Part shown: in pieces, positions 10,191 to 41,470 of the stretch
Numbering within the stretch: position 1 is the stretch's first letter
How the letters are laid out: every line of letters begins with the position of its first letter
Assembly: GCA_963575745.1 (NCBI GenBank)
Contig: CAUYUJ010000015.1
Coordinates: 186,001-250,000, forward strand
Length of the DNA stretch: 64,000 bases
Source: Prorocentrum cordatum
Taxonomy: Eukaryota
Direction of reading: 5' to 3'
The notes under the pieces: model-generated
What the model was told of the DNA's origin: nothing
What the model saw: the letters and a program-made list of their open reading frames with translations, nothing else
Databases searched by the model: none
Translations under genes and position numbers: made by a program

Positions 10191-10899
10191 CTCCTCGCCT
10201 CCCCACTCATCCTTTGTCTCCTACTACGGCCGCTGCAGGCGTCGAGCGGCGCTGGGTGGCGTTGGGTGGCCATGGGTGGCCTGAGTGGCGAGGAGTGGCG
10301 CCAAATGATGCAGAGTGGCGTTGGGTGGCGTTGCGTGGCGCTGAGTAGCTCCTGGCAGTAGCGCTGGCTGGCGATGAGTGGCGCTGATTGGCGCTGCGTG
10401 GTGCGGTATTTTTTTCTGCCCGCGTGGCCGTCACGCTGCCATTTCACGCGAAACCTGCAAGGGCAATTCTAACATTGGAAGCCGGTTGAAGTGAAGGTGA
10501 GAAATCAATGTTGGCGTCCTCAGAAGAACCGGAGTTGACCATTCGATTAGTGACACCCCCCTTTGGGATCTGAGGATTCGCACCCTAAAATATGCAACAG
10601 AGTCCCATTCGATGACATATATATATATATATATACAGTTGTTCGGAGGCGCGCCGAGTTACCCAAATCAACTAACCTTTTTTCATTTATCATAACCCCT
10701 TCTCCTCGCCTGCTCGTTTCTTCATCCTGTGTGCCAAGCGTTTCACCATCATCAATATCACCAACGTCATCCTCCATCGTCCTTACGTTGACATGTGAAC
10801 TCAAGTTCGGAGCGACGAAACTGATCTTACTCCCTGAAGCTAACATCTCCTGGCTTACGTTGAAGGTCTTGCTTTCGGCGGACGTTAGGGCAGCATAAG

Positions 10900-12560
10900 A
10901 TGCACCAAGCGCGAGCACAAGTGCAAAGTGTGCGGGTCGTGTCGAGCACGTGGGCCCGCGATTCGCATGATCTCTTCGATTTCGAGGCCACAGATTTGCA
11001 CAGGAAGATTTTCACCGCCCTGAAGCCGGCGGTCTGCGTGCGCACTGGCACCGACGTCCAGATGGTGATCAGGGGCAACGATAGGGGGGATAGGCATAGG
11101 GGGGAGGATGCATCGACCCCCAATCGCCCATTGATCGCGGTTGGGCCCCGATAGCCCCAACCTGCCCAGGAAGGTGCGGATTCACTATTCGGAGGCCTAT
11201 CGCCGATCTATCGACGACGTATCGCCGATTCCAGGTCGATGCATCCCCCCCTGTGCCCATCCCCCCCTATCGTTGCCCCTCAGGTGAGTGAGCACGTGCC
11301 AGTAAACAACATGTACGACCCCCTTTTGCGGCTGGCCCAGAAGGACGGAGCCTTCTGGGTGGACCGGGCCCCCCCGTCGAGCGGCTCCAAGAAGCTCTGG
11401 CTGGTGGTCCGTGACATGCCCTCCGGGGCCCACCACCTCCAGGAGGGCGACGTCATCAAGCTCGGCCGCTTCAAGTTCCGCGTGCGGCAGCTCGTCGGCT
11501 CCGGCGAAGCGCAGCCAGAGTTGAAGCTTGACGATTCTAGCTCGGTGTGCCGCGTAAACCCAGGGGGCGAGACGGAGCTGGCGCAGACACTCTGTCGCAT
11601 CTGCTTGCTTGAAGGACCAGGTGAGGGCGATCCCCTCATCTCGCCGTGCCTTTGCAAGGGCTCCATCGAATACGTCCACCTCGGCTGCTTGCGGCACTGG
11701 ATCCGAGGGCGTTTGAACCTCTCAGACTCCACTGGCGGCTCCTACTTCTTCCGGCCTCTGCCGTGCGAGCTCTGCAAGGCTGTCTATCCGACCTACGTGC
11801 AGAACGATGCTGAGCCGCAGCCGATGCCGTTGGTGGAGGTGCCATGGACGAAGCCGCCCTTCATCGTTCTAGAGAACATGGTCCGCGACTCTCAGCAGCA
11901 CGCCTGCCGCGGTCTGCATGTTATCTCGCTGGCGGAGAAGGTGCTGAAGCTGGGCCGAGGCCACGAGAGCGACGTGCGCATCGCGGACGTGTCGATCTCC
12001 CGGTGCCACGCCATGATCCGATTCCAGCACGGCCATTTCCAGCTGGAGGACAACAACTCGAAGTTCGGCACCCTGGTCGCCATGAAGAAGCCCCGCCTCC
12101 TGGAGCCGGGCCAAGGCTCGGCGGCGCGCACAAGGAGGGAGCGCGGGCAGGGGGCGGCCTTGAAGAAGGTGGGGGGGGGGCCTTTCTCAGATGCCCCCCC
12201 GGCTTCTAGGAGGCCTTCTCTGAAGCTCTCGGGCCCGTTAAGAGAGGGCCACCGGTTTCGAAGAAGCCCCCCCTCCGCCGTCTTGGAGGGCCACCTTTCT
12301 CGCGCCGCCCCCCTTCCAGCGCGCCGCGAGAAGGCGTGTCCATCCAGATGGGCCGGACGGTGCTCTCCCTGTCGGCCCAGACCGACGTCGAGTCCCTCGA
12401 GGCGCCCACGCCGATTCGCCACGGCCCTTCCGGCGGGGCCGCGGACGAGCGCCAGCTCCGCCTGGCGCTCCTCAATCGTTTCAGTGGCGCGCGCCCCGAC
12501 GGCTGGACCACGGAGCACCCTGGCGATGCGGCCCAGCTGCCCGGCGAGGCCGACGAGTGA
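10900..12560 (+). CDS. FHA / RINGv (C4HC3) / FHA domain protein, putative E3 ligase; exons 10900-11064, 11284-12115, 12334-12560; 407 aa spliced
   Basis: Exons sum to 1224 nt with an open frame from ATG to TGA. RINGv CRICLLE..LISPCLCKGSIEYVHLGCLRHW..CELCK; FHA LKLGRGHESDVRIADVSISRCHA..DNNSKFGT; LQEGDVIKLGR. Splicing restores the FHA end (GQGVSIQMGRTVL). The N-terminal TWARDSHDLFDFE resembles alveolate FHA-RING proteins (from recall). Confidence 0.88.
11065..11283 (+). mobile_element. Introner-like intron 1 (GT-AG, 219 nt): ~50-bp TIRs, 5-bp TSD GGTGA
   Basis: Left end AGGGGCAACGATAGGGGGGAT..GGATGCATCGACC is the reverse complement of right end GGTCGATGCATCC..CCCCTATCGTTGCCCCT; GGTGA at 11064-11068 and 11283-11287. 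Confidence 0.88.
12116..12333 (+). mobile_element. Introner-like intron 2 (GC-AG, 218 nt): degenerate TIRs, TSD AAGG(C)
   Basis: AAGGC at 12113-12117 and 12331-12335; ends CTCGGCGGCGCGC / GCGCGCCGCGAG, with weaker inverted similarity extending ~70 bp inward. Confidence 0.78.
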
Positions 12561-22479: not shown

Positions 22480-25400
22480 TCGGAGGGCGCCGTATGGAAA
22501 ACGTATTGAGTGGCAATGTATCGCCTCATGTTGAGGCCCAGAATGCAAGTGAAACAGTTGTTTTTCTCAACCAGTTTTCTGGTGACCCCCCCCTTCGTGG
22601 GTCACCTGGTGTGCTTGCGCCGTATCGAAAACGCATTGAGTGGCAGTGCGCCGCCTCATGTTGAGGCCCAGAATGCAAGTGAAACAATGGGTTTCTCTCA
22701 ACCAGTTTTCTGATGACCCACCCCTTCGTGGGTCACCAGGTGTGCTTGCGCCGTATGGCAAACGTATTGAGTGGCAATGCATCGCCTCATGTTGAGGCCC
22801 AGAGAGCAAGTGAAACAACTGTTTTTTCTCAACCAGTTTTCTGGTGACCCACCCCTTCGTGGGTCACCTGGTGTGCTTGCGACGCATGGCAAATATATTG
22901 AGTGGCAGCGCATCGCCACATGACGAGGCCCAGGATGCAGGTGAAACAATTGGTTTTTCTCAACAAGGGGTTTCTGGTGACCCACCCCTTCGTGGGTCAC
23001 CTGGTGTGCTTGCGCCGCATGGAAAACGCATTGAGTGGCAATGCATCGCCTCATGTTGAGGCCCAGAATGCAAGTGAAACAATTTGTTTTTTCCAAACCA
23101 GTTTTCTGGTGACCCACCCCTTCGTGGTTCACCTGGTGCGCTTGCGCCGTATGGCAAAAATATTGAGTGGCAATGCATCGCCTCATGTTGAGGCCCAGAA
23201 TGCAAGTGAAACAATTGGTTATCCTCAACCAGTGTTCTGGTGACCCACCCTTTCGTGGGTCACCTGGTGTGTGTTTCGCCGTATTGAAAACGCATTGAGT
23301 GGCAATGCGTCGCCTCGTGTTGAGGCCCAGAATGCAAGAAAAACGATGGGTTTTTCTCAACCAGTTTTCTGGTGACCCACCCCTTCGTGGGTCACCTGAC
23401 GTATTGAATGGCAGCGCATCGCCTCATGACGAGGCCCAAAGTGCAAGTGAAACAGTTGGTTTTTCTCAACCAGTTTTCTGGTGACCCACCCCTTCGTGGG
23501 TCACCTGGTGTGCATGCGCCGCATGGAAAACGTATTGAGTGGCAGTGCATCGCCACATGACGACGCCCAGGATGCAGGTGAAACAATTTGTTTTTCTCAA
23601 CTAGTTTTCTGGTGACCCACCCCTTCGTGGGTCACCTGGTGCGCTTGCGCCGTATGGCAAACGTATTGAGTGGCAGCGCATCGCCTCATGACGAGGCCCA
23701 GAATGCAAGTGAAACAATTGTTTGTTCTCAACCAGTTTTCTGGTGACCCACCTCTTCGTGGGTCACCTGGTGTGTTTGCGCCGCATGGAAAACGCATTGA
23801 GTGGCAATGCGTCGCCTCATGCTACGGCCCAGAATGCCAGTGAAACAATTTGTTTTTCTCAACCAGTTTTCTGGTGACCCACCCCTTCGTGGGTCACCTG
23901 GTGTGCTTGCGCCGTATGGAACGTATGGAAAACGTATGAGGTGGCAGCGCGTCGCCTCATATTCATGCCCAGAATGCAAGTGAAACAGTTGTTTTTTCTC
24001 AACCAGTTGCTGGTGACCCACCCCTTCGTGGGTCACCTGGTGTGCTTGCGCCGTATGGCAAACGTATTGAGTGGCAGTGCCTCGCCTCATGTTGAGGCCC
24101 AGAATGCAAGTGAAACAGTTGGTTTTTCTCGACCAATTTTCTAGTGACCCACCCCTCCGTGGGTCACCCGGTGGGCTTGCGCCGTATGGCAAACGTATTG
24201 AGTGGCAGTGCTTCGCCTCATGTTGAGGCCCGGACTGCAAGTGACATATTTGGTTTTTCTCAACCAGTTTTCTAGTGACCCACCCCTTCGTGGGTCACCT
24301 TGTGTGCTTGCGCCGTATGGAAAACGCACTGAGTGGCAATGCATCGCCTCATGTTGAGGCCCAGAATGCAAGTGAAACGATGGGTTTTTCTCAACCAGTT
24401 TTCTGGTGACCCACCCCTTCGTGGGTCACCTGGTGCGCTTGCGCCGTATGGCAAACGTATTGAGTGGCAATGCCACGCCTCATGTTGAGGCCCAGAATGC
24501 AAGAGAAACAATTTGTTTTTCTCAAATAGTTTTCTGGTGACCCACCCCTTCGTGGGTCACCTGGTGTGCTTGCGCCGCATGGAATACGTATTGAGTGGCA
24601 GTGTTTCGTCTCATGTTGAGGCCCGGAATGCAAATGAACCACTAGGTTTTTCTCAACCAGTTTTCTGGTGACCCACCCCTTCGTGGGTCACCTGGTGTGC
24701 TTGCGCCGTATGGCAAACATCTTGAGTGGCAGTGCATCGCGTCATGACGAGGCCCAAGATGCAGGTGAAACCATTTGTTTTTCTCAACCAGTATTCTGGT
24801 GACCCACCTCTTCGTGGGCCCCCTTGTGTGCTTGCGCCGTATGGAAAACGTATTGAGTGGCAATGCATCGCCTCATGTTGAGGCCCAGAACGCAAGTGAA
24901 GCAATTGGTTATCCTCAACCAGTTGTCTGGTGACCCACCCCTTCGTGGGTCACCCGGTGTGCTTGCGCCGTATGGAAAACGTGTTGAGTGGCAATGCGTC
25001 GCCTCATGTTGAGGCCCAGAATGCAATTGGAACATTTTGTTTTTCTCAACCAGTTCTCTGGTGACCCACCTCTTCGTGGGTCACCTGGTGTGTTTGCGCT
25101 GCATGGAAAACGCATTGAGTGGCAATGCGTCGCCTCATGTTGAGGCCCAGAATGCAAGTGGGTTTTTTTCTCAACCAGTTCTCTGGTGACCCACCCCTTC
25201 GTGGGTCACCCGGTGTGCTTACGCCGTATGGGAAACATATTGAGTGGCAGTGCGTCGCCTCATGTTGAGGCCCAGAACGCAAGTGAAACCATTTGTTTTT
25301 CTCAACCGGTTTTCTGGTCACCCACCCCTTCGTGGGTCACCCGGTTTGCTTGCGCCGCCTGGAAACGTATGGAGTGGTAATGCCTCGCCTCATGTTGAGG

Positions 25401-26720
25401 CCCAGAATGCAAGTGAAACAAATTGTTTTTCTCAACCACTTGTCTGGTGACCCACCCCTCCGTGGGTCACCTGGTGTGCTCGCGCCGTAGCGAAAACGCA
25501 TTGAGTGGCAGTGCGTCGCCTCATGTTGAGGCCCAGAATGCAAGTGAAACAGTTGGTTTTTCTCAACCAATTTTCGAGTGACCCACCCCTCCGTGGGTCA
25601 CCCGGTGGGCTTGCGCCGCATGGCAAACGTATTGAGTGGCAATGCCTCGCCTCATGTTGAGGCCCAGAATGCAAGTGAAACAGCTGGTTGTTCTCAACCA
25701 GCTGTCTTGTGACCCACCCCTTCGTGGGTCACCTGGTGTGCTTGCGCCGTATGGCAAACATACAGAGTGGCAGTGCGTCGCCTCATGACGAGGCCCAGGA
25801 TGCAGGTGAAACAATTTGTTTTTCCCAACAAGTTCTCTGGTGACCCACCCCTTCGTGGGTCCCCTGGTGCGCTTGCGCCGTATGGAAAACGTATTGAGTG
25901 GCAATGCATCGCCTCATGTTGAGGCCCAGAATGCAAGTGAAACAAACTGTTTTTCTCAGCCAGTTGTCTGGTGGCCCACCCCTTGGTGGGTCACCCGGTT
26001 TGCTTGCGCCGTATGGAAAACGTATTGAGTGGCAGTGCATCGCCTCATGTTGAGGCCCAGAATGCAAGTGAAACAATTGGTTTTTCTCAACCAGTTGTCT
26101 GGTGACCCACCCCTTCGTGGGTCATCTGGTGTGCTTGCGCCGTATGGAAAACGCATTCAGTGGCAATGTGGCTCAATGGGTCACCTGCTTGCCGTATTGA
26201 GTGGCAGTGCATCGCCTCATGTTGAGGCCCAGAAAGCAAGTGAAACAAATGGTTTTCTCAATCAGTGTTCTGGTGACCCACCCCTTCGTGGGTCACCTGG
26301 TGTGCTTGCGCCGTATCGAAAACGCATTGAGTGGCAGTGCGTCGCCTCATGTTGAGGCCCAGAATGCAGGTGAAACCATTTGTTTTTCTCAACCAGTTTT
26401 CTGGCGACCCACCCCTTCGTGGGTCACCAGGTGTGCTTGCGCCGTACGGCAAACGTATTGAGTGGCAATGTTTCGCCTCATGTTGAGGCCCAGAATGTAA
26501 GTGAGACCATTGGTTTTTCCCAACCAGTTCTCTGGTGGCCCACCCCTTTCGTGGGTCACCTGGTGTGCTTGCGCCGCATGGCAAACATATTGAGTGGCAG
26601 TGCGTCGCCTCATGACGAGGCCCAGGATGCAGGTGAAGCAATTTGTTTCTCTCAACCAGTGTTCTGGTGACCCACCCCTTCGTGGGTCACCTGGCGTGCA
26701 TGCGCTGCATGGAAAACGTC
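22480..26720. repeat. Tandem satellite, ~131-bp unit, ~32 copies
   Basis: Unit GAGTGGCARTGCATCGCCTCATGTTGAGGCCCAGAATGCAAGTGAAACAATTGGTTTTTCTCAACCAGTTTTCTGGTGACCCACCCCTTCGTGGGTCACCTGGTGTGCTTGCGCCGTATGGAAAACGTATT repeated head to tail; no variable spacers. Confidence 0.97.
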
Positions 26721-26769
26721 CAAGGTGGCAGTCATCTGGATTCCTCGGAGGGCGCCGGGCCATGTCCTA

Positions 26770-27315
26770 GGGATTCCTGAGGTTCCCCTTGGGGTTCCTT
26801 AGGGCGCCCTAGGGATTCTTGGGGATTCACCAGGGATTCCTAAGAAGCCCCGAGGGAATCCGAAAGATTCCCTGAGGACCCCGCAGGATCCCCGAAGGAT
26901 TCCGGAGGATTTCCGAAGGGATTCTTTCGGTGCGCCGAGAGATTCCTCCGGATTCCCGAGGGGCTCTTGAAGATTCCGCTTTGAATCCCAAGGATTCCGC
27001 AGGGATTCTCTTGGATTCCCGAGGGGGCCATAAGGATTCCCGAGGGTTTCTGGAGTCCGCGGGAATTCTTAACGACACGTTAGGGATTCCAAAGGATTCC
27101 TTAGGGATTCCTGACGATTCCCAAGGGATCCCTCAGGATTCCCTTAGGATTCTTGAGGAGCCCTTAAGGATTCCTAAGGATTCCCTAGGGATTCCTAGGG
27201 ATGCCCTCGGGATTCCTTAGGATTCCCTTGGGATTCTTGTGGATGCCCTAGGGATTTCTAAGGATTCCTTAGAAATTCCTTATGGATGCCCAAGGGATCC
27301 CCAAGGATTCCCAGA
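26770..27315. repeat. Degenerate ~11-bp minisatellite (GGGATTCCTTA-like)
   Basis: Recurrent ggattcc cores. Confidence 0.85.
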
Positions 27316-29282: not shown

Positions 29283-30240
29283 CATTCGGTGGAGCTCCCT
29301 ATGGGGCCACGAAATGCTGTCCTGGGTGGGGAGACGCATGCGAATCCAGCCACTGGGGCCTTCGGTGGAGCTCCCTATGGGGCCACGAAATGCTGTCCTG
29401 GGTGGGGAGACGCATGCGAACACCCTCAATGGGGCCTTCGGTGGACCTCCCTATGGGGCCACGAAACGCTGTCCTGGGTGGGGGAGACGCATGCGAACAC
29501 CCTCAATGGGGCCTTCGGTGGAGCTCCCTATGGGGCCACGAAGCGCTGTCCTGGGGTGGGGGAGACGCATGCGAACACCCCCACTGGGACTTTCGGTGGA
29601 GCTCCCTATGGGGCCACGAAACGTTGTCCTGGGCGGGGGAGACGCATGCGAACACCCCTACTAGGGCCTTCGGTGAAGCTCACAATGGGACCACGAAACG
29701 CTGTCCTGGGTGGAGGAGACGCATGCGAACACCCCGATTTGGGCCTTTGGTGGAGCTCCCTATGGGGCTATGAGACGCTGTCCTGGGCTGGGGAGACGCA
29801 TGCGAACACCCTCAATGGGGCCTTCGGTGGACCTCCCTATGGGGCCACGAAGCGTTGTCCTGGGTGGGGGAGACGCATGCGAACACCCTCAATGGGGCCT
29901 TCGGTGGAGCTCCCTATGGGGCCACGAAACGCTGTCCTGGGTAGGGGAGACGCATGCGAACACCCCCATTGGGGCTTTCGGTGGAGCTCCCTACGGGGCC
30001 ACGACACGCTGTCCTGGGTGGGGGAGACGCATGCGAACACCCCTACTGGGGCTTTCGGTGAAGCTCACAATGGGACCACGAAGCGTTGTCCTGTGTGGGG
30101 GAGACGCATGCAAACACCCCCAGTGGGGCCTTCGGTGGAGCTCCCTATGGGGCCATGAAGCGCTGTCCTGGGTGGGGGAGACGCATGCGAACACCGCCAC
30201 TCTGGCCTTAGGTGGGGCTCTCTGTGGGGCCACGAAACGT
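29283..30240. repeat. Tandem minisatellite, ~76-77-bp unit, ~13 copies
   Basis: Unit GGGGCCTTCGGTGGAGCTCCCTATGGGGCCACGAAACGCTGTCCTGGGTGGGGGAGACGCATGCGAACACCCYCAMT. Confidence 0.95.
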
Positions 30241-31700: not shown

Positions 31701-33229
31701 GAGAAACGCACGGGGTAGGGCGTTCAGATACGATAGTTCTGGATGGACAAACCAAACGGCATGAAAGACCAGGATACTACGACTGTTAGCACAAATTGTA
31801 AAGGAATCAATAAACATCAAAGTCATATTTCCAGAAGTTCGTAACCAAGAGCTGAGAGAAAGGGGAAAGTCAGGTAGCAAACCCGCCTTGAAGGGGGACC
31901 TCCTCCTCCTCCTCCTCCTCGTCCTCCTCCTCGTCCTCCTCCTCCTCCTCCTCGTCCTCCTCCTCCTCCTCCTCGCCCTCCCCCCAAAGATGCCCCGCAA
32001 AGAAACCCCCGCCCCGCTCCCATGCGGCCGACGACCCGCCCCCACGCCCAGGCTCGCCGCGCCGCCGCAGTGGCCGCCGCCGCTCGGCCTCGCGCCCACG
32101 CCCGCGCTCGCGCTCGCGGTCGCCAGCGCACCCGCCGGCGGCGCCAGCGCCGCCCTCTCCGGCGGCCCCGCCAGCCCCGCCCACGCCGCCAGCGCCGCCG
32201 ACGCCGCCGCGGGCAACGCCCAGCGAGCGGCCGCCCTGCCGCAGCAGCGCCCGCCGCAGGTCCCCGCCGTCATCGCCCTCGCGCGCGCGCCCGCGCTCGC
32301 GCTCGCCGCCGCGGCCGCCAGCGCCGCGGGGGTCGACCAGCGAGCTGCCGCCGCGCCCCGCAGAGGGCCAGCGTTCGCCGGCGCCGCCACTGCCGCCGGC
32401 GCCGCGGGCTTCGTCCCGCCCAGCGGAGGGCCAGCGTTCGCCGGCGCCGCCGCGGCCGCCGCGGGCGTCGTCTGGCGAGCGGCCGCCGCGCCCCGCGGAG
32501 GGCCAGCGTTCGCACAGGCCGGAACGGAAGAGGAGGAGGAGGAGGAGGAGGAGGAGGAGGAGGAGGAGGAGGAGGAGGAGGTTGAGGAGGAGGAGGGTGG
32601 GTCGCGGAATGTCGCCGCCGCCGCTCCGTTGTCTGCCTTGCCGATGCCTTGCTCACCCCGCGGCCGTCTTGCACAACGCTGTCGTGGACACCACAGACAC
32701 GTAGTCTTGCAGGGAAGTGCGCAGCAGCAGCAGCAGCAAGGCTGGCTGCGCGCAAACAGTGGTCGGCGCGAAGGGGACGGGCGGCATTGATTGTAACGAA
32801 GGCCGGGGGGGGCTTCTGTAAAGGAATGGGGCTTCTGAGAATTCCCCAGGCCCTTCTGAGAAGCCCCTTTCTTCTAAGAAGATCCCCGCTGACTTAGAAG
32901 GCGCTGCCCCCTTCGCGCCGCCCCCTTCTTCGCGCCGCCAAAAGACGGGCCATAATATAGCCCAGCACACCATTGATGATGCAATGGGCATTCCCCTCCC
33001 AGGCTCCATCGTCGTAAGGCACTGCTTGCGCTCCTGCGCACTACCCCCCACCCGTGTGATTCTCGTTAGAAAGTATGAGCTGCAGGATAGCAAACTGTGA
33101 AGAAGCTTCCAACAAGAGCTCGGGTTCGCAAAAAGAAACGCCTTCCATCTGGGTAGCTGTTGAAACTCATAGCTTCAGAAAGTATGATCAAAGCGAGGGG
33201 CCAAACGGTCATTCACTGGTCCTGGGAGC

Positions 33230-39841: not shown

Positions 39842-39921
<80 letters not shown>

Positions 39922-41184: not shown

Positions 41185-41388
41185 CGGTGATGGTGGTGGG
41201 CATGATGACGATGATGATGCGATGGAGATGTTGTTGATGAGGTTGATGAGGTTGATGTGTATAGTGATGTTGATGGTGATATTAGTGGAAGTGATGATGA
41301 TGATGATCATCATCATCATCATGATGATGATAATGAAGAAGATGATGATGATGATGATGCTGATGCTGATGCTGATGCTGATGCTGAC

Positions 41389-41446
<58 letters not shown>

Positions 41447-41470
41447 CTGATGATGATGATGATGTTGGTG
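41185..41470. repeat. (GAT)n microsatellite, imperfect
   Basis: Direct reading. Confidence 0.95.

Follow-up and report, generated by a model that had tools for sequence, protein, structure and literature searches.

An Introner-type intron, probably derived from a miniature inverted-repeat element, in an FHA/RING-CH gene of a Prorocentrum-like dinoflagellate

The origin of new spliceosomal introns is a long-standing question, to which Introner transposons are the best-documented answer. Here we describe a 64-kb stretch of DNA from a Prorocentrum-like dinoflagellate (contig CAUYUJ010000015.1, positions 186,001 to 250,000; hereafter the window, in whose numbering all positions are given), where a 214-bp element with terminal inverted repeats (TIRs), referred to as element 1, almost certainly created the first intron of a gene encoding FHA and RING-CH domains. 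The introners of Aureococcus anophagefferens and Micromonas pusilla, attributed to Huff et al. in 2016, are reportedly non-autonomous DNA transposons like element 1, but are said to differ from it in lineage, in element sequence and in the length of the target site duplication (TSD), such that the likeness is one of description. For dinoflagellates, the accessible text of Roy et al. (bioRxiv 10.1101/2020.10.14.339549) describes Symbiodinium elements with 4-nt TSDs, one copy of which is the 5′ splice site, and with an inverted repeat that ends at the 3′ splice site, as well as 15 classes of Polarella elements with TSDs of 3–8 nt, where some splice sites span the boundary between element and TSD. 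The same text derives 12,253 Polarella introns from Introner-like elements and assigns to class 12 a 5-nt TSD, NAGGH or NNAGG, that provides both splice sites (10.1101/2020.10.14.339549). In Amoebophrya, the hairpin is suggested to hold the ends of the two exons close to each other, and the accompanying definition comprises inverted repeats of 8–20 nt and direct repeats of 3–5 nt (Farhat et al. 2021; PMC7789003, accessible part). The Prorocentrum cordatum genome paper, in its accessible part, reports the Introner pattern in 2.4% of introns and describes introner elements as prevalent in free-living dinoflagellates (Dougan et al. 2023; PMC10666404). Introners have since been classified across eukaryotes with Prorocentrum unmentioned in the main text (Gozashti et al. 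2025), and among the matches listed by a full-text search for Prorocentrum together with introner, only the genome paper records introner elements for the genus, as far as the accessible texts extend. Transposon-made introns are thus already known from Polarella, Symbiodinium, Amoebophrya and P. cordatum; the locus described here adds a well-documented case and leaves the picture drawn for the first three unchanged.

The original prediction, which had been made from the DNA letters alone, placed a 214-bp element between two copies of GGTGA, and both the element and its flanking repeats are found in the sequence exactly where they had been proposed (Table 1). Element 1 opens with the letters TCAGGGGCAACGATAGGGGGG and closes with CCCCCCTATCGTTGCCCCTCA, with tips of the form TCAGGGGCAACG.., and a repeat search identified a perfect inverted repeat of 19/19 positions (11071–11089 versus 11262–11280) that begins at the third base of the element, 6 nt from the 5′ end of the intron, and ends 3 nt from its 3′ end. 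Beyond this core, the arms are 90% and 81% complementary in registers one base apart, and when the outermost 70 nt at the left are aligned globally with the reverse-complemented 70 nt at the right, ~57 positions per arm are well paired, with two small indels. Indeed, when the whole element is aligned globally with its own reverse complement, pairing extends over most of its length. No open reading frame of more than 65 amino acids is present within element 1. The sole mismatch in the first 15 nt of the tips lies at position 2, with C in the left tip and G in the reverse-complemented right tip. The left tip reads TCAGGGG and the right tip reads CCCCTCA rather than the CCCCTGA of a perfect repeat; as the original prediction had recognized, it is through this mismatch that the 3′ end reads CAG.

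The register of the element relative to the reading frame is exact. The ATG codon at 11062–11064 is followed directly by GT at 11065–11066, and the AG at 11282–11283 is followed by GTG AGT GAG CAC, such that excision of the 219 nt from 11065 to 11283 yields the in-frame sequence ..DVQM|VSEH... To the base, intron 1 contains element 1 and one copy of the flanking repeat and nothing more. The donor lies in the left TSD, and the acceptor is composed of the last base of the element and the first G of the right TSD, an arrangement that had been predicted and that agrees with published dinoflagellate elements.

Table 1. Coordinates of the gene, its introns and the elements within them (positions in the window).
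Feature	Position	Strand	Description	Basis
Exon 1	10900..11064	+	FHA/RING-CH gene; start ATG 10900; ends ..GTDVQM	Translation, homologues, RNA contigs with 0 mismatches
Left TSD copy GGTGA	11064..11068	+	Bases 2–3 are the GT donor; joint ambiguous over 5 letters	Sequence
Intron 1	11065..11283	+	219 nt, GT..AG, phase 0; element plus one TSD copy	Contigs, homologues
Element 1 (TIR element)	11069..11282	.	214 bp, non-autonomous, MITE-like (miniature inverted-repeat transposable element); near-complete hairpin	Repeat search, fold, self-alignment
Left TIR arm	11069..11131	+	G-rich; perfect core 11071–11089
Right TIR arm	11221..11282	+	C/T-rich; perfect core 11262–11280; putative pyrimidine tract
Right TSD copy GGTGA	11283..11287	+	First G completes the AG acceptor; GTGA opens exon 2
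Exon 2	11284..12115	+	Starts VSEH..; RINGv and FHA domains	Pfam, homologues, RNA contigs
Left AAGGC repeat	12113..12117	+	5-bp direct repeat; joint ambiguous over 5 letters
Intron 2	12116..12333	+	218 nt, GC..AG (chosen among 6 equivalent cuts), phase 1	Contigs of 2/4 runs, homologues
Element 2	12118..12330	.	213 bp, hairpin-forming; inverted repeats of 71–79% over 19–35 nt
Right AAGGC repeat	12331..12335	+	5-bp direct repeat
Exon 3	12334..12560	+	TGA stop 12558–12560	Translation, homologue alignment

Intron 1 is removed exactly, such that the mRNA equals that of the uninterrupted gene and the protein carries no scar. Twenty of the 24 public sequencing runs listed contain part of the 1.8-kb stretch, with a share of at most 0.69, which is the ceiling expected from exons without the two introns. 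Assembled contigs were examined for four runs from four studies, namely X9, which is on record as polyA RNA-Seq, X1, which is RNA by guess, and X5 and X12, whose kind is unrecorded. In each of them, one contig of 645–674 nt spans 10850–11063 and 11283–11682 with no mismatches and skips 219 nt, so that the precise intron of the original prediction is recovered in four of four runs, including the polyA run, by a junction check on contigs. The joint 11063/11283 has five ambiguous letters, and the cut at +1 gives GT..AG boundaries and the intron 11065–11283. No other joint at the intron 1 site is present in the contigs of the four runs, which likewise show no depth within either intron save for one unrelated 31-nt piece in element 1; the material being contigs and not reads, the joints alone count as evidence, and absent intron cover does not. 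We note that the insertion also made a perfect consensus donor, CAG|GTGAGT (11282–11292), exactly at the acceptor of intron 1, of which no use as a donor was seen in the contigs of the four runs.

The reading frame upstream of intron 1 is MHQARAQVQSVRVVSSTWARDSHDLFDFEATDLHRKIFTALKPAVCVRTGTDVQM, with its ATG at 10900, and continues from 11284 onward as VSEHVPVNNMYDPLLRLAQKDG... Exon 2 contains the Pfam domains RINGv (RING-CH; 2e-12) and FHA (1.9e-11), and the joined coding sequence (10900–11064, 11284–12115 and 12334–12560) comprises 1224 nt and encodes 407 amino acids with a single, terminal stop. When the spliced protein is aligned with ten dinoflagellate homologues, neither junction is gapped in any of them (10/10), the closest indels being one additional residue four positions past junction 1 (P0007 of P. 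cordatum) and one missing residue two positions ahead of junction 2 (P0091). The closest homologues read ..GTDVQM[V/L]SEH.. across junction 1, consistent with the scarless join anticipated in the original prediction, and their N-termini start with MHQ.. or MHR... This contiguity of relatives across the intron 1 site is one of proteins and transcripts, and has no bearing on their genomic DNA.

A search of a large protein collection with the exon 2 protein yielded 1317 candidates; 682 of them match at E ≤ 0.001, and the best 120 of 682 are considered here. Among these matches listed, the top ones are proteins of 85–90% identity on 1.4-kb contigs, and all those with a readable organism name are dinoflagellate, including Polarella glacialis, Durusdinium trenchii and a Breviolum gene model. 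The closest named homologue among them is from Prorocentrum cordatum, with 87% identity over the exon 2 part (BLASTP) and 82% over the whole spliced protein. In addition, the G+C content of the window, 53–72% per 2 kb, fits the 59.7% reported for the P. cordatum genome (PMC10666404, accessible part), and the source is accordingly taken to be Prorocentrum-like. No paralogue of the FHA/RING-CH gene, which could have offered an empty site, was found inside the 64-kb window by tblastn. In run X5, a contig with four differing positions at 12021–12036 has a depth of 395, ~3x that of the exact-match contigs, and is the transcript of a near-identical paralogue or allele.

The inverted repeat of element 1 is not expected by chance. 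A 19-mer search allowing ≤3 mismatches finds only the element's own two arms in the 64 kb, compared with an expectation of 0.03, and two or more matches occur in 0/100 shuffles. Similarly, we counted structures with an exact inverted repeat of at least 15 nt, 60–1500 nt apart, and a flanking direct repeat of at least 5 nt: the window holds 37, of which 36 are ATC/GAT microsatellites (39.8–41.5 kb) and the remaining one is element 1, whereas 0/30 dinucleotide-shuffled windows contain any. RNA of the region 11064–11287 is predicted to fold into one long hairpin of -129.8 kcal/mol (z = -8.8; 0/200 shuffles as stable). The predicted helix starts at 11068, two bases past the GU, and its last pairs include the G of the acceptor (11283), which places both splice sites at the foot of the stem. 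In a G+C-corrected sliding fold of the window, introns 1 and 2 (z = -2.7 and -2.2, respectively) belong to the stretches with stronger hairpin formation, the top ranks being taken by a 21-bp repeat array at 26.8–27.3 kb.

Intron 2, the sole other coding intron of the gene, has the same build. The frame of exon 2 is lost after ..LLEPGQ, and the conserved sequence GVSIQMGRTVLSL.. resumes ~220 nt downstream in another frame. Contigs of X1 and X5 (2/4 runs) skip 218 nt with five ambiguous letters, the contigs of X9 and X12 ending short of this region, and the GC..AG boundary (12116–12333) was chosen because only the cut at +3 of the six gives a known dinoflagellate boundary. Removal of intron 2 restores the frame and makes the protein contiguous with 10/10 homologues. 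As for intron 1, what is removed equals an element, here of 213 bp, plus one copy of a 5-bp repeat. Elements 1 and 2 share no detectable similarity in global alignment in both orientations against 300 mononucleotide shuffles (z = 0.9). Intron 2 would have arisen like intron 1, from a 213-bp element unrelated to element 1. The common size and the 5-bp repeat of the two elements are suggestive, without demonstrating a common transposase. TSDs of 5 bp are typical of Transib-type elements, the termini of which appear unlike those of element 1.

How closely the locus matches the described systems can now be stated. The Polarella glacialis and Symbiodinium elements in the accessible text of Roy et al. 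(10.1101/2020.10.14.339549) resemble element 1 in being non-autonomous, in bearing TIRs and short TSDs, and in being spliced out together with one TSD copy; their 5′ splice site also comes from the TSD, their 3′ splice site from the element end, the TSD or the boundary between them, and their donors include GT, GC and GA, with a G after the acceptor. Both introns share with Polarella class 12 the 5-nt repeat, and AAGGC of intron 2, with its GC donor, fits NAGGH, whereas GGTGA of intron 1 fits neither class 12 motif and its AG spans the boundary of element and TSD. The host here is Prorocentrum-like, and the likeness to the Polarella and Symbiodinium elements is one of structure. The introner elements of Amoebophrya, in the accessible part of their description (PMC7789003), share with intron 1 the hairpin, the terminal inverted repeats and the 3–5-nt direct repeats over the boundaries; in contrast to their mostly non-canonical and highly variable boundaries, those observed here are the canonical GT-AG and GC-AG. 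The IE+ introns of P. cordatum follow the same operational definition as intron 1, but are given as counts in the accessible part of the genome paper (Dougan et al. 2023; PMC10666404), whereas element 1 is presented here with its TSD register and its splicing.

Under this pattern definition (Farhat 2021; Dougan 2023), an introner is an intron with inverted repeats of 8–20 nt within 30 nt of its ends and direct repeats of 3–5 nt over both exon/intron boundaries. Intron 1 is skipped as 219 nt in all four runs, one of them polyA, and bears the 19/19 repeat near its ends and GGTGA over both boundaries. The strict definition of Introners (Roy 2020/2023; Gozashti 2022, 2025) is that of a transposon family generating many introns. 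Of its features, intron 1 displays the TIRs and TSD at the intron ends and the removal of the element plus one TSD. That element 1 also belongs to a multi-copy Introner family appears somewhat more probable than not. In X9, the polyA run, we observe a low-depth contig of 157 nt that contains 30/31 nt of the left arm (11073–11103) and is unlike it on both sides; it could represent another copy of the family that has diverged, or else an unspliced paralogue.

Several points weigh against the reading of intron 1 as a spliced intron made by an Introner-type element. The TSD alone is weaker evidence than its length suggests, because three of its five letters (G|GT) are expected anyway from the dinoflagellate splice consensus, AG|GH in the accessible text of Roy et al. 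(bioRxiv 10.1101/2020.10.14.339549). An RNA record is lacking for three of the four runs, and were any of them DNA, the joined form would exist as DNA too. Retroposed gene copies are common in dinoflagellates, and an intronless DNA copy of this kind could be the source of the joined contigs; the size of the runs, 20–135 million letters compared with a multi-gigabase genome, rather argues for transcriptomes. No empty orthologous site was seen, the comparison being with proteins and transcripts of relatives. Moreover, the family status of element 1 draws on one RNA contig of 157 nt. No second copy was found in the 64-kb window, either with the 19-mer at ≤3 mismatches or with blastn at word size 7, which gave chance-level matches of 11–23 nt. 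Viral contigs yielded 0 matches to element 1, as did prokaryote genome contigs searched for both arms with a gap of 150–180 nt. Four loci in JGI metagenome contigs (L001–L004; G+C from 0.45 to 0.73) were recovered with the 18-nt TIR core and rejected as chance, since only 18–23 nt matched and no second arm was present. The metagenome, viral and prokaryote collections are, however, without dinoflagellate genomic DNA, and for this reason the lack of copies in them is weak evidence. By our estimate, even a large family in a multi-gigabase genome would give just one copy per 64 kb.

The strongest competing explanation is a one-off event, in which an ordinary MITE from an intergenic or intronic family landed by luck in a splice-competent GGTGA and was tolerated because it is spliced, with no specialised family of intron-generating copies involved. 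We regard this as unlikely, although it accounts for the lack of a further copy in any collection searched, and although the sequence ..ATG|GTGAGT.. was already donor-like, such that splice-competence may stem from the site more than from the element. Copy absence says little when the collections contain no dinoflagellate genome, and the arms themselves make the element rich in G at its 5′ end and rich in pyrimidines at its 3′ end, which closes in CAG. Intron 2, in addition, repeats the build of an element plus a 5-bp repeat, and two lucky events within one 1.2-kb coding sequence are less likely than a general process. Introner signatures are counted in 2.4% of the introns of P. cordatum (PMC10666404, accessible part).

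A far less probable alternative is that intron 1 is old and inherited, and that its repeats stem either from chance or from a later MITE insertion with loss of the remainder of the intron. While part of the direct repeat (G|GT) would be expected from the splice consensus in this case as well, the intron content corresponds to the base to an element plus one repeat copy, and the TIR directly adjoins the repeat, its perfect core opening at the third base of the element, a structure seen in 0/30 shuffles. Equally improbable is that the hairpin is, beyond a transposon relic, primarily an intron-hosted precursor of small RNAs (like those of microRNAs or hairpin-derived small interfering RNAs), for although it is long, near-perfect and stable (-129.8 kcal/mol) and weakly matches the plant MIR1858 precursor in Rfam (RF04119; 40.9 bits, E 6.4e-05), the search returned sub-threshold matches only, this score is far under the RF04119 gathering score of 137, long hairpins score generically on such models, and the TIRs and TSD fully account for the hairpin.

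Taken as a whole, the explanation that we consider likely is a MITE-derived, Introner-type intron within the coding sequence of the FHA/RING-CH gene of this Prorocentrum-like dinoflagellate. A non-autonomous cut-and-paste MITE of 214 bp with ~57-nt TIRs would have inserted into the coding exon, the uninterrupted target site of which would read ..CAGATGGTGAGTGAG... The transposase would have made a 5-bp staggered cut at GGTGA within ..CAGATG|GTGAGTGAG.., repair of which would leave GGTGA on both sides, and the insertion would thereby have given rise to a complete intron at once. The 5′ splice site would be provided by the GT of the left TSD copy (G|GT) and the 3′ splice site by the last A of the element together with the first G of the right TSD copy. 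We suggest that the C/T-rich right arm acts as the pyrimidine tract ahead of the CAG acceptor; with an outer left arm that is rich in G, the element would present a C/T-rich 3′ arm in either orientation and could thus offer such a tract. The asymmetric tip would present CAG in the present orientation and GAG in the opposite one. Pairing of the arms may additionally juxtapose the two splice sites at the foot of one long hairpin, as suggested for the introners of Amoebophrya (PMC7789003), and splicing of the element with one TSD copy (219 nt) would restore an mRNA identical to that of the gene before insertion. Whereas the anatomy, the exact splicing and the protein without a scar are shown directly, the act of transposition, the functions of the pyrimidine arm and of the hairpin, and the membership in a multi-copy family are inferred.

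The empty target, ..ATG|GTGAGT.., resembles a strong 5′ splice site, which is in line with the idea of proto-splice sites discussed in the accessible text of Roy et al. (10.1101/2020.10.14.339549). The perfect TIR core and the perfect TSD point weakly to a recent gain, three of the five TSD bases being constrained by splicing or coding. A more speculative proposal, which we regard as doubtful at present, is that element 1 represents a new Introner family of Prorocentrum, which may still be active, with a transposase that cuts with a 5-bp stagger and with arms and an asymmetric tip suited to the creation of introns. If such a family, together with the second element, were real, transposons with 5-bp TSDs would be one of the chief sources from which introns continue to be gained in a bloom-forming dinoflagellate with a 4.75-Gb genome. 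As it stands, the locus offers an unusually clean worked example, with an exact intron, a cut confirmed by contigs and a protein without a scar. The element, with its TSD register, its tip asymmetry and its proof of splicing, would be a useful seed for defining families genome-wide in Prorocentrum.

The window contains several other repeats. A 131-bp satellite at 22487–26719 comprises ~32 copies in all, with units that match at 86–87% and variant periods of 109, 171 and 302. It is followed at 26766–27312 by an array of 21/11-bp units (GGATTCCTAAG-like and partly palindromic), which is the strongest hairpin-former of the window in the sliding fold, and at 29285–30239 by a 77-bp tandem repeat with 12.4 copies and 88% matches. 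A relaxed scan for TIRs and TSDs (5-nt repeat, arm identity ≥21/30) gave 104 rows, all of them repeats, and was discarded, its low-complexity filter having also dropped element 1. With an 11-nt seed, the scan gave 67 raw rows in the window, nearly all of which were rejected as the 131-bp satellite, ATC/GAT and CCT/GGA microsatellites, or a GC-rich stretch at ~60.4 kb. Likewise, an apparent 70-nt TIR at 31896–32593 is only (CCT)n facing (GGA)n, the former at 31899–31974 and the latter at 32526–32596, on either side of a very GC-rich stretch of 550 bp. Microsatellites of (TCA)n and (ATG)n face each other in the same manner at 39842–39921 and 41202–41464, and such facing complementary trinucleotide microsatellites look like long TIRs to a repeat scan.

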